Below, in pieces: positions 6,416-28,045 of a DNA stretch of 64,000 nucleotides; positions within the stretch are counted from its first letter, which is position 1, and each line of letters starts with the position of its first letter. The notes under the pieces are model-generated. The model was not told where the DNA came from. It saw only the letters and a program-made list of their open reading frames with translations, and did not search any database. The position numbers were made by a program, and so were the translations under genes. The DNA comes from Octopus vulgaris (lineage: Eukaryota): NCBI GenBank assembly GCA_951406725.2, contig OX597835.1, forward strand, positions 46,252,001-46,316,000, read 5' to 3'.

Positions 6416-6620
6416 ACCGGAAGGTTTACGAAAATAAACAAAACACGAAGACAGGTGGAGTACAAACAAGCAAATGTATTAGTATGGCGCTCAGGAATAG
6501 AAATAGAACAACTCTTTTACGTTTCGAGCCTACGCTCTTCGACAGAAAGATACACAGAAAAGATACACAGAAAAGAAACAAGAAGAGAAAAAAATGCGTG
6601 TAGGAGCTAACGGTCCATTA
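6416..6620 (-). mobile_element. Short non-coding PLE-like insert with variant hammerhead (6513-6550)
   Basis: Minus: TCTTT-CTGTCGA-A-GAGC-GTAG-GCTC-GAAA-CGTA-AAAGA; flanked by TA repeats; homologous to 27480-27600 and 27675-27880. Confidence 0.65.
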
Positions 6621-6720
6621 TATATATATATATATATATATATATATATATATATATATATATGTATGTATGTATGTATGTATGTATGTATGTATGTATG
6701 TATGTATGTATGTATGTATG

Positions 6721-7312
6721 TATAGTCAATCCAAACATGAACAAGCAAGAACATACCACAACACGAAAATGTGGTAAAGTGCTGAGTTATTGGACGCTCA
6801 GGAATGAAAAGAAAAGAAAGAGGATTTCACGTTTCGAGCGGAGTTCTTCATCAGAAATATAGAAAAAGTCGAAAGAAGGGCAGACGGAGAAAGAAAATCG
6901 CCAACGATACACACGCGGTCACATATTGAAATCAGCGGAAGAGAATGAGTGAAGAAAATGTTCTTTCGAAGGAAGGTGTTGGTGGAAGGAGTGGAGGTGA
7001 GGCATGGTGAGAGGGTGTGAATGTCGGTGTAGGTGTTATTGGTGGTGACAAAAATAGAAAGGTGGAATTAGAAAGAAGATAGGTGGAAGGAGGACGAGAA
7101 AAGTGGAAGAGTCACGGACAAATTGTGATGATTTCCAATCAAGATTAGATTGGCGTAATCCGAATGAATGTGACCTTAATCCGCAGGTATAAGAATTCCA
7201 GGAATTGGTACTCCAAAGTCAGTCAGAAGGCCGGGGTCCGTGTGAGCGCGCGGTATATAGTCAATCCAAGCATGAACAAGCAATGTGAGGGCACTCCAAA
7301 CGAATTGCATGT
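6721..7312 (-). mobile_element. PLE-like element with partial direct terminal repeat and hammerhead motif (6824-6858)
   Basis: TATAGTCAATCCAARCATGAACAAGCAA occurs at 6721 and 7256; minus strand ATTT-CTGATGA-A-GAAC-TCC-GCTC-GAAA-CGTG-AAAT. Confidence 0.6.
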
Positions 7313-7408
7313 ATGCAGTATATATACATACATACATACATACATACATACATACATACATACATACATACATACATACATACATATATATATATATATA
7401 TATATATA

Positions 7409-7822
7409 TCTTTTACTCTTTACTCTTTTACTTGTTTCAGTCATTTGACTGCGGCCATGCTGGAGCACCGCTTTAATCGAGCAACTCGACCCCGGGACTT
7501 ATTCTTTTGTAAGCCCAGTACTTATTCAATCAGTCTTTTTTATCGAACCGCTAAGTAACGGGGACATCGGTTGTCAAGCAATGCTAGTGGGACAAACACA
7601 GACACACAAACACACACACACGCATATATATATATATACGACATATATACGACGGGGTTCTTTCAGTTTCCATCTACCAAATCCACTCACAAGGCTTTGG
7701 TTGGCCCGAGGCTATAGTAGAAGACACTTGCCTAAGTGGTTGTGTGGTAAGTAGCTTGTGGGACTGAACCCAGAACCATGTGGTTGGTAAACAAGCTACT
7801 TACCACACAACCACTATGCGCC
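7409..7822 (-). mobile_element. tRNA-derived SINE family A with internal inverted duplication
   Basis: Full head and TAAAAGAG-repeat tail; 7735-7759 is the reverse complement of 7791-7815. Confidence 0.9.
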
Positions 7823-7878
7823 ATATATATATATATATATATATATATATATATATATATATATATATATATATATAT

Positions 7879-8078
7879 ATTATATAAAAGGGCTTAGTAA
7901 AATAAATTACTTTGCCGCATACTGAACTCAGTATGAGTTCAGTATGCGGCAAAGTAATTTATTTTACTAAGCCCTTTTATATAATGTAATAATTTGAATT
8001 CGCCTTAAATGGTCCCTTTGCATACTGAATACTTGGTGAAATTGATTAATTAATTAATTTTACCCTCAATTGTTGAAA
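7879..8078. repeat. Perfect fold-back (about 52-bp arms, 3-nt loop) plus one-sided extension, inside (TA)n
   Basis: 7879-7930 is the reverse complement of 7934-7985; loop GTA. Confidence 0.9.
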
Positions 8079-8344
8079 TATATATATATATATATATATA
8101 TATATATATATATATATATATATATATATATATATATATATATATATATATATATATATATATATATATATATATATATATATATATATATATATATATA
8201 TATATATATATATATATGGCACTGCGACGAAGAGGGTTCCAGTTGATCTGATCACGAAGAAGTGGTTGAGCACCCCAAAAAGAGCTGCGCCCTTAACCTC
8301 ATTCTCATGGAGATTCATCATGACATACAATATGGCGAATTCGA

Positions 8345-24440: not shown

Positions 24441-25106
24441 ATATACATATATATGTTATATATGTTATTTCTGTTGTTGTTTTTTGTGTGTATGTATATA
24501 TATATGTGTGTGTATGTGTGTGTGTTTGGATATATTTATTGTGGTGCTTACGTGTATATATGTATGCATATATGTATGTATGTATGCAAGTGCGACTTCT
24601 GTTAGATTAGTCGAGAAATATCAGGAGCTAAAATGAGAAAGACGGATCTAAATTATATTTCTCACTCCTTCTAATAACATCTTCGCAACATAAAAGCTAG
24701 CAAGGCCAACAACATAATTGATTCCTTGTGGTTTTCTCAGCAGATTTGACAATATAACTCTGATCTCAGATATATCATCGAATTACTATCAAGTAGTTTT
24801 TAATTCTTTTTTCCTGCCCTGTAGCCTTCTTGTACGTATGGTATATTTGGAGAGATAAAGTCAGAGAGTAGAATGCTGTGTGTAGTTGATTGGAATATCG
24901 ATAGATGTGGTACACGATAATCAGCTTCTATGCTTATTGGTTCCAGTGTTCCAATAGGTGTTGAAATTGAATGTGTCCGAGCCCAATGCCGGGCATCAAT
25001 TGATTTCTATGTGTAGATTAGCTTAATATCAACAGATCGGTTATTGGTCTAATATTTATCTCTCTACTGTGCTGTTCTTCCCTTGGTAATCGCGTTTACT
25101 GTTACC

Positions 25107-25360
25107 GTGGGACCTGTTGTTGTGGGGTAAATTGCTGTAGGAGTTGTTGCTGTGGGAGCTCTGACTGTGGGGCAGTTGCCGTGGGAGCTGTTGTTGTGGG
25201 AGCTGTGACTGTGGGGAAGTTGCCGTGGGAGCTGTTGCTGTGGGAGCGGTCGCTGTGGGAGCAGTTGCTTTAGGAGCTGTCGCTGTGGGGGCAGTTGCCG
25301 TGGGAGCTGTTGCTGTGGGAACTGTTGTCGTTGAGGCTGCTGCTGTGAGAACTGTTGCTT
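25107..25360. repeat. 15-bp minisatellite (GTGGGAGCTGTTGCT)n
   Basis: About 16 degenerate units; gives the GAVAV pseudo-ORF. Confidence 0.9.
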
Positions 25361-25476
25361 TTGTTGTTGCTGTGTTGTTGTTCTTGTGTTATTATTACGG
25401 TTGTTGTTTTCAGCCTTTATTCTTGTGTGTCTTATTCATTGTCCTTGGTGTTGTAATCCTTGTTACGGTTGTTCTG

Positions 25477-25742
25477 TAGTAATAGTAGTAGTAGTAGTAG
25501 TAGTAGTAGTAGTAGTAGTAGTAGCAGCAGCAGTAGTAGTAGTAGTAGTAGTAGTAGTAGTAGTAGTAGCAGCAGCAGCAGCAGTAGTAGCAGCAGCAGT
25601 TGCAGTAGTAGTAGTGTAGTAGAGTAGTAGTAGTAGTAGTAGTAGTAGTAGTAGTAGTAGTAGTAGTAGCAGTAGTAGTAGCAGTAGTAGTAGTAGTAGT
25701 AGTAGTAGTAGTATTAGTAGTAGTAGTAGTAGTAGTAGTAGC
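25477..25742. repeat. (TAG)/(CAG)n microsatellite
   Basis: Direct inspection. Confidence 0.96.
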
Positions 25743-26196
25743 AATTGGTGTTTTTGTTGTTATTGTTATTGTCGTTGTACTTCTTGGTTTTATCAATGTT
25801 GTCTTTGCTGTTCTCCTCGTTGCTTGGCGTCTTCCTCCTCATGTCGATGTTGTTGTTGTTGCTGTTGTTTTCGGTGCCGTTGTTGTTTTTGATTTTTGTT
25901 GTTCTTGTAATTCTTTGTGCTCGTTTCCATTTTGTTCTTCTTATTAAACTCCTTTTTTTGTGATGTTTGTTCTTTTTTGTTTTCATTCTTATTTCTTCTC
26001 TTGTCCCTCTACCTGCTGTTTTCGTTGTTATTTTCCTCATTATCCTTCTTCGCGTGATTTTTGCATTCTTCGTCACCGTTCTTTATTGTTCAAGTAATAA
26101 TATTTTACAGACATTTTGTCATTGTTTAACACATGGCATTGTCCGATCGAACAAACTCTGTCCAATGTTATTTAATCCATGACTGACATAGGTTCA

Positions 26197-26530
26197 GGCG
26201 TGGCTGTGTGTTTGTTTCCCAACCACATGGCTTCTTGTTCAGTGCCACAGCGTGGCACCTTGCTCAAGTGTCTGTTACTATAACCTCGGACCGAGTAACG
26301 CTTTGTCAATGGAGTTGGTAGACAGAAACTAATAGAAGCCCGTCCACCTCTTGACAACCGGTGTTCGAGTGTCAACATTCTTACAATATTGCTGTTCGGC
26401 AAATAAGACCGATAAAATACATACCATGTTAAAAGAAAATAAGTATTAGAAGCGGTATCTTTGACTAAAATTCTTCAAAGAGTTGCACCAGCATGGTCGC
26501 CGTCTAATGACTGAAAAGATGTAAAGAAAT
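26197..26530 (+). mobile_element. Decayed SINE family A
   Basis: GGCGTGGCTGTGTG..CCCAACCACATGG..TTCAGTGCCACAGCGTGGCACCTTG; tail CACCAGCATGGTCGCCGTCTAATGACTGAAA. Confidence 0.85.
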
Positions 26531-27249
26531 ACTCGATGAAACATATCAAATATGTATAGAACTGTGAATTCTGATGAACCATAACCTGGTACAGTACCAA
26601 AAGTTTATCTGGAGCTTTTCACTAATCTAAGTAAAATTGCCTGGAACGATAATCCCTCACCATTATATACATATATATATATATATATATATATATATAT
26701 AACAAATAGGGAAGGGTTATCAATCCAGGTAAAATACTTCATAAGTTCTTTGTTGGCACACCGGTCTAACAATATTAATTAGTGAAGAACTCCAGGTAAT
26801 CTGTCTGTGTGGTGAGAAGCCAGCTTCCCAACCACATATTTCCAGATTCAGTCGGAGAGCTAACGATTCTGTCAGCACACCACCTTGAGCATTGAAGAAA
26901 TATTTCCATCATTTACTGATGGCCATTTACCTTTTGAGTTCTCATCTTATATAGATTCGCCAATGTAGATTTCCGAATCGTACTAGGCCAGAACAATGAA
27001 ATAGCTATCAGGCAAGGTATTTAGGACAAATTTTGACTACTAAAACAGAGTTGCAGTTTAGACTGAAGTCAGTGACTAATATTCATTTTCGTTAGTTTGG
27101 CAGCCAATAAAAGAAACGACCACAGATGCGGTCTGATTTTTAATATGACCTCATCAGCGAAGCGAAAACTTGACTGTATTTAGTAAAGTACTGTTCAGGT
27201 ATTCATTGAGTAACTACATTACTTGCCTTAAAAAGAAACTAGAAGTTTC

Positions 27250-28045
27250 TATCTTTTTATCTTTTATTTTTTATTTGTTTCACTGATTAGACAGTGCCCA
27301 TTCTGGGGCACCACATCGAATAATTATTTAATGGTCTCTTTTGCCGAATCACTAAGTTACAGGCGTGTAAACACACACCGGTTGTCAAGTGGTGGTAGGG
27401 GACAAACAAAGACACAAAAGCCTACACATTATATGTATATATATAGAGAGAGAGAGAGAGAGACAGAGAGGGGGAGAATTCATGAAAAAAACAAAAGACG
27501 AAGACAGGTGGTGTAGTAAGCAAACAGATGTATTAGTATAACGCTCAGGAATTGAAAAAATCTTTTACGTTTCGAGCCTACGCTCTTCTACAGAAAGAAA
27601 TATATATGCATATACATACATAAGTATATATACATATATATATATATATATATATATATATATATATATATATAACGGGAAGCTTTATGAAAATAGACAA
27701 AAGACGAAGGCAGGTTTACGGAAATAAACAAAAGACGAAGGCAGGTGGAATACAAACAAAGAATTGTATTAGTATGACGCTCAGGAAATATAAATAAAAC
27801 AAGTCTTTAACGTTTCGAGCCTACGCTCTTCAACAGAAAGATACACAGAGAAGAAACACAGAAAGAAGGAGAGCGAATCAACATACATACATACACACGA
27901 TGGGCTTCTTTCAGCTTCCTTCATCCAGGTCCACTTACAAAGCTTTGGTCGGCGCGAGGCCATAGTTCATGATACTTGCCCTGGTACCACGCGGTGGGAA
28001 TGAACCCGGAACAATGTAGTTTGGAAGCAAGCGTCTTACCACCGA
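27250..28045 (-). mobile_element. SINE A whose internal microsatellite hosts two hammerhead-bearing inserts (27480-27600, 27675-27880)
   Basis: SINE tail part 27250-27425 and head part 27895-28045; hammerhead motifs at 27561-27598 and 27804-27841. Confidence 0.8.

Follow-up and report, generated by a model that had tools for sequence, protein, structure and literature searches.

Can a hammerhead motif still cut RNA when a core base that is held to be essential has been replaced throughout the family that carries it? The question is raised by a window of 64,000 nucleotides (nt) of microsatellite-rich DNA from Octopus vulgaris (contig OX597835.1, positions 46,252,001 to 46,316,000, in a genome of 2.8 Gb). 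On its minus strand the window holds three small hammerheads with U instead of A at core position 6 (copies A, B and C; Table 1), each situated in the 3' tail of a Penelope-like retrotransposon. From 5' to 3' these copies read stem I UCUUU, the core C3 U4 G5 U6 N7 G8 A9, an additional A, stem II GAGC-GUAG-GCUC, then G12 A13 A14 A15.1, C15.2 G16.2 U16.1, N17 and the second strand of stem I, AAAGA. The core of the family is thus CUGUNGA and not the canonical CUGANGA. A preliminary description of the window had placed these three motifs and a fourth on the minus strand, with U6 in three of them, N7 varying as C, A and U, a hammerhead anatomy throughout and a stem III that can be formed solely between two copies; the sequence bears out all of this. 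No Rfam hammerhead match is present among the 150 of 308 window matches listed, nor among the 11 for positions 27450-27950.

U6 is the true state of this family, which comprises approximately 25,000 copies. With the context of the motif fixed, the exact U6 pattern matches the genome 15,730 times against 0 for a control, and the motif is therefore not a chance occurrence. The same context yields 180 matches with A6 and 422 with C6 or G6 (13 G6 among the 100 matches listed). A loose pattern returns 25,247 matches for U6 (control 481) and 17,504 for A6 (control 608), the latter mostly derived from other families, including one with a UCC loop that is discussed below. Sites were also selected without using the motif, through a marker in the downstream flank (16,777 matches; 70 of the first 100 sites examined). 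Here 56 sites contain an ungapped motif, two a motif with indels and 12 are truncated ahead of or inside it; position 6 is U in 54 of the 56 ungapped copies and A in the remaining two. It is also U in 37/37 element motifs detected across 20 loci that were picked because they had long frames or paired hits; this count relies on regular expressions, which would overlook motifs whose core is damaged. Single contigs in the sequencing runs X11 and X19 span the U6 motif without differences. A variant table from one run shows no change at position 6 either, but N7, a variable position, is missing from it as well, and the table was disregarded. The preliminary description had reckoned with a family consensus of A6, of which the three copies would be clonal, dead derivatives. 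Since the consensus is U6 and the copies are not clonal, that possibility falls away.

Judged by its motifs and by a by-eye comparison of alignment rows of the reverse transcriptase (RT), the host is a Neptune-clade Penelope-like element. It is recently active and very abundant. The unit measures 4,480 nt with C3 at unit position 4,349 and the motif approximately 130 nt from the 3' end, and the hammerhead is present in both pseudo-long terminal repeats (pseudo-LTRs) of the RT-endonuclease element. Locus L046 has two motifs, along with another partial copy and a tail in inverted orientation; its RT-endonuclease frame is truncated and lies 150 nt ahead of the motif. Using its protein as query gives 150 scored matches, 23 of them (counted manually) within open frames of more than 1,000 codons, and such a frame is present in 19 of the 20 loci picked above. 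This single open reading frame (ORF) consists of an RT with a DKG motif, followed by a C-terminal GIY-YIG domain with internal cysteines. The full ORF matches RVT_1 in Pfam (E 3.7e-7) and, weakly, GIY-YIG (E 0.0066), whereas the truncated ORF gives no Pfam match. The linker between RT and endonuclease is of the form CX4CxxC (CSRPRCRTC at residue 836) and fits the CX2-5CxxC linker common to Neptune and Nematis (PMC8557442); among the supplementary alignment rows of that paper, Neptune1_Ap is the one that the RT blocks resemble most closely by eye. In the long-ORF loci (L109-L128) the frame runs on for approximately 100 codons into a pyrimidine-rich tail, and tandem units are up to 99.7% identical.

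The element shows partial tandems, 5' truncation and microsatellite ((TA)n) targets. Tandem partners carry two identical motifs 4.48 kb apart, and it is these two pseudo-LTR copies that form the natural dimer pair. A constant 5-nt TA spacer occurs in 15/15 partial tandems tested, and the upstream pieces range from 344 to 4,465 nt and lack a common 5' end. Upstream and downstream copies mismatch at 0.31% within a locus against 1.39% between loci (p 6e-5). The low mismatch within loci and the fixed spacer are what twofold copying of a single unit would be expected to produce. Five of the 20 loci were omitted from this test: in L116 the upstream piece measures 92 nt, L120 and L125 yielded no such piece, L127 is inverted, and L121 unites two subfamilies, which is at variance with the copying of one unit.

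Selection in the U6 lineage appears to follow the rules of a hammerhead still. The family keeps the extra nucleotide after A9, G10.1-C11.1, a paired stem II, GAAA, the palindromic ACGU (15.2-16.2) without a loop 3, the NUH triplet and a paired stem I of 3-5 bp. Copies with a base other than G at position 8 (537 against 15,730) are found at the level of decay; the same applies to G17 (132 of 15,730), and the rule that N17 is not G is kept. A comparison between families shows covariation in stem I, stem II and the C3-G8 pair, with two-sided change in 9 of 10 pairs (hand-picked alignment, 19 distinct rows). The U6 family itself is without internal covariation, because its stems are invariant.

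On balance we narrowly favour the explanation that the U6 motif is an attenuated hammerhead ribozyme that would cut solely as a dimer and resides in the pseudo-LTR of an active Neptune lineage. A transcript covering both pseudo-LTRs would bring two motifs together, ACGU would pair with ACGU as stem III while the strands of stem I are swapped, and each core would cleave the partner copy after N17. The resulting unit-length RNA might form a circle or undergo repeated copying by the RT of the element in some other way; multiple copying from a circle, or a template jump, could then give rise to further partial tandems at (TA)n sites. With U6 the rate would fall and a closed monomer hairpin would be favoured, leaving more RNA uncut. 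Activity of a natural A6C core has been reported as low but detectable (PMC3088659).

Several observations weigh against such a scheme. In pairwise mutagenesis of another hammerhead, mutants in the CUGA region had low activity except for the C3-G8 swap (PMC9901934), and minimal hammerheads with A6 also cut poorly in vitro (PMC4209133). A sharp clustering of 5' junctions at the cut site is not apparent: approximately 6 of 35 distinct loci are compatible with it in a manual tally of the first 100 of 1,673 rows, in which TA microhomology is a confounder. Naiad elements lack canonical hammerheads and form partial tandems all the same (PMC8557442), and tandem structure is therefore no proof of cleavage. 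The conservation of the motif could serve binding instead of catalysis. Finally, U6 permits a competing rod (U4.G16.2, G5-C15.2, U6-A15.1, U7-A14), with a predicted pairing probability of approximately 0.98 in the youngest subfamily.

This rod is central to the most serious rival, in which the motif no longer cuts and is kept as a structural RNA signal that serves RT binding, RNA dimerisation or template switching, with U6 giving the rod hairpin. We consider this possible, although rather unlikely. Changes of A6 are strongly deleterious in other hammerheads (PMC3088659, PMC9901934), the in vivo role of the minimal motifs is called unknown by the authors of two papers (PMC7761336, PMC4209133), and position 6 is predicted to pair with 15.1 at a mean probability of 0.63 in 27 U6 variants against 0 in nine A6 variants. 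The rod is predicted as well for a U6 motif of apparently independent origin (L210, see below). Nonetheless, it is weak where N7 is G or C (0.07-0.5 predicted), and 0/6 monomers fold better than shuffles (z -1.1 to +1.1). The predicted gap between the active dimer and the monomers is on average equal (7.6 kcal/mol for A6, 7.4 for U6), and dimer energies do not discriminate between the two. G8, A9, G12, A13 and an N17 other than G are all retained, moreover, and variation is limited to positions that are free in active hammerheads.

That the motif is a dead relic carried by a successful element, with U6 as an inactivating change that hitchhiked, strikes us as very improbable. Naiads can do without hammerheads, which may be parasites of these elements (PMC8557442), and the apparently single origin of U6 in its own genome is in line with hitchhiking. 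However, when the 56 flank-picked copies are clustered on the flank alone, the subfamily majorities differ solely at N7: 0/27 constrained columns are changed against 22, 15 or 14 of 74 flank columns at three clustering thresholds (19-30%; Fisher p 0.0007, 0.010 and 0.019), with 11-12 copies outside groups of at least three. Wider subfamilies, although their copies were picked by motif, are approximately 40% apart in the downstream flank and have the same motif. In one sequencing run, labelled as another organism, the contig depth at the motif is far above that of its flanks.

The history of U6 was followed in a tree of 95 motif-plus-flank segments (midpoint root, unsettled bootstrap, weak basal forks). 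It is ladder-like: A6-UCC families and three A6-GUAG copies (L031-L033) are basal and the remainder is U6, with N7 and N17 switching between subfamilies and further A6 copies dispersed within U6 groups in the manner of back-mutations. Endonuclease identity to the young protein is 65-66% in two basal A6 copies and 72% in an old U6 copy (L008), the lower end of the subfamilies over which U6 extends. Among relatives in metagenomes (80 loci), 34 of 35 motif matches have A6, which supports A6 as the probable ancestral state; within its own genome, U6 appears to have arisen once. The one exception among these metagenome matches, a minimal hammerhead at L210:2791-2826 (+) on contig JAAUXV010067574.1, combines U6 with a U3-A8 swap and lies approximately 290 nt after a Neptune-type frame, which is broken. 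Here U6 has a probable independent origin. Separately, U3-A8 core variants, a known type, adjoin Penelope-like frames in the metagenome contigs L171, L184, L192 and L205. With somewhat less than even confidence we suggest that A6U arose at least twice in Neptune, and that the lineage either kept dimer self-cleavage with a base held to be essential replaced, or made the hammerhead into a non-cutting RNA signal.

Least probable of the three rivals is a U6 core that is fully compensated, a dimer contact or an element protein restoring normal activity: U6 has long been kept in a lineage whose copies exceed 25,000, and occurs a second time, with the U3-A8 swap, but no change accompanies it (the basal A6 copies L031-L033 share the stems and loop), second mutations gave no rescue (PMC9901934) and the second occurrence is one frame-broken contig. 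Escape from adenosine-to-inosine editing would be a poor reason for U6 and was dropped, as five other core adenines persist.

Table 1. Hammerhead motifs, element tails and insertion context in the window (unit, the 4,480-nt element).
Feature	Position	Strand	Basis and details
Element 3' tail, copy A, 5'-truncated, flanked by (TA)n	6415..6612	-	blastn to unit 4283-4480, 85.6%
U6 minimal hammerhead, copy A	6513..6550	-	C3 at 6545 (CUGUCGA), U6 at 6542, N7 = C, N17 = A at 6518
Tail of related A6 family (loop UCC)	6721..6925	-	blastn 76-81% to family members; family count
A6 minimal hammerhead, sister copy	6824..6858	-	C3 at 6854, CUGAUGA, N17 = G at 6828
Element 3' tail, copy C, 5'-truncated, older subfamily	27479..27598	-	blastn unit 4344-4470, 78.9%; tree
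U6 minimal hammerhead, copy C	27561..27598	-	C3 at 27593 (CUGUAGA), U6 at 27590, N7 = A, N17 = A at 27566
(TA)n microsatellite between copies B and C	27600..27674	unstranded	Tandem-repeat scan and sequence
Element 3' tail, copy B, 5'-truncated, near youngest subfamily	27672..27873	-	blastn unit 4309-4476 to 27873-27709, 92.9%
U6 minimal hammerhead, copy B	27804..27841	-	C3 at 27836 (CUGUUGA), U6 at 27833, N7 = U, N17 = U at 27809

The window itself contains only 5'-truncated tails of the U6 element, 120-200 nt long, inserted in (TA)n and 79-93% identical to the unit. Copies B and C had been proposed as a working dimer. They do have the same orientation at a distance of 243 nt, but they belong to different subfamilies with (TA)n between them: compared with the youngest subfamily, their downstream flanks show identities of 92% and 67%, and they fall in different parts of the tree. 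In view of these tree positions and the intervening TA tract, the pair is best read as two separate insertions, for which the tract was likely the target. The tail of copy B has an internal 31-bp duplication (tandem repeat 27684-27746) and its hammerhead motif is that of the long-ORF elements; the tail of copy C begins 5 nt ahead of C3. Non-LTR retrozymes consist of short, non-coding tandem units with canonical hammerheads. A retrozyme was rejected as an explanation, given that the unit is 4.48 kb and coding and that the 243-nt pair represents two subfamilies split by (TA)n. Two further sites were noted on the plus strand: a 36-nt leftover of the U6 element 3' tail without hammerhead (20270-20305), and CUGAUGA...GAAA with a short hairpin and five unpaired bases ahead of GAAA (28509-28535), probably due to chance or decay.

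The fourth motif, close to copy A, had been regarded as a canonical sister copy whose stem I, different but still paired, and different loop suggest covariation. Its CUGAUGA is confirmed, and stems do covary across families, but its own stem II is not intact. An A.C mismatch (GAAC/GCUC) and a G at N17 mark it as decayed, and on its sequence it is a member of a separate A6 family, GAGC-UCC-GCUC. This family has 4,346 genome matches, with A6 in all 100 among the matches listed. Its loop II has 3 nt, and it has a downstream motif in common with the U6 family. Neither an autonomous partner nor an ORF was found beside 30 of its copies (L279-L308), near which the lone protein match has 28% identity and lies on the opposite strand. 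A second large A6 minimal hammerhead family (L050-L078), with stem I ACAC/GUGU and a longer stem II, accounts for most of the first 100 among the 17,504 loose A6 matches.

Other retroelement remnants are present in the window as well. Positions 1-1866 (-) contain an AT-rich, frame-broken remnant of a Penelope-like RT with C-terminal endonuclease, which extends past the window start. By eye it resembles the Hydra clade (Hydra-1_Obim row), and it is unrelated to the U6 family. Both this resemblance and the SINE tails of the window have an octopus-like appearance. The RT fragment at 1276-1866 was considered as parent and rejected: it matches none of the 48 loci compared, and the Neptune protein has no tblastn match in the window. 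A retroelement fragment with a Pfam RVT_1 match is found at 11718-12119 (-). The regions 20821-21285 (-), 55181-55663 (-), 40948-43234 and 61522-63990 are without Pfam match and are presumably fragments of other retroelements.

Much of the design of the U6 motif is known. Minimal type I hammerheads have been described in metazoan Penelope-like elements, including Neptune of Acropora digitifera (Cervera and De la Pena 2014, PMC4209133, Fig. S3). These motifs likewise occur in both pseudo-LTRs, have a U-rich leader, a short stem I, the extra nucleotide after A9, G10.1-C11.1, a 4-bp stem II with a 4-nt loop and GAAA-CGU-H without loop 3, and are proposed to act as a dimer; their truncated solo copies likewise number in the thousands. 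The palindromic stem III without a loop, the additional nucleotide and the dimer model, all singled out in the preliminary description, had thus been published already. Position 6 sets the two apart, being U here and A in the Fig. S3 rows compared (CUGA or UUGA); the A. digitifera motif differs from the U6 family mainly at this position, and the sole core variant named in the main text of that paper is U3-A8. Neptune elements as described in PMC8557442 resemble the present host in RT, CX2-5CxxC linker and GIY-YIG, in partial tandems, 5' truncation and (TA)n targets, and in an inverted tail as in L046. Unlike these, the host has a long pyrimidine-rich 3' region that is entered by the frame, and a U6 hammerhead. 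Hammerheads with a palindromic, extremely short stem III and a Penelope association, for which dimer cleavage is reported, are also known (Lunse, Weinberg and Breaker 2017, as cited in PMC6765202). The A6C hammerhead of phage Bcep176 (Perreault et al. 2011, PMC3088659) shares a natural pyrimidine at position 6, but this is a C in a single phage case, with a rate below 0.1 per minute, whereas here a large retroelement lineage is fixed for U6. The literature searched yielded no natural A6U hammerhead; Lunse 2017 and Arkhipova 2017, which lie outside it, may record one. Three of the four features flagged in the window had been published; what remains new is that an active lineage has U6 as a fixed state.

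What minimal hammerheads do in Penelope-like elements is unknown according to published accounts (PMC7761336, PMC4209133). The large, recently active lineage described here has a core substitution that should severely impair catalysis, yet it obeys all other hammerhead rules, and its A6 relatives in the same genome provide a natural test of whether Penelope hammerheads must cut. Searches based on CUGANGA overlook over 25,000 motifs in this genome alone. If U6 cleaves, the hammerhead consensus would be widened; if it does not, a ribozyme would have been converted to a signal.

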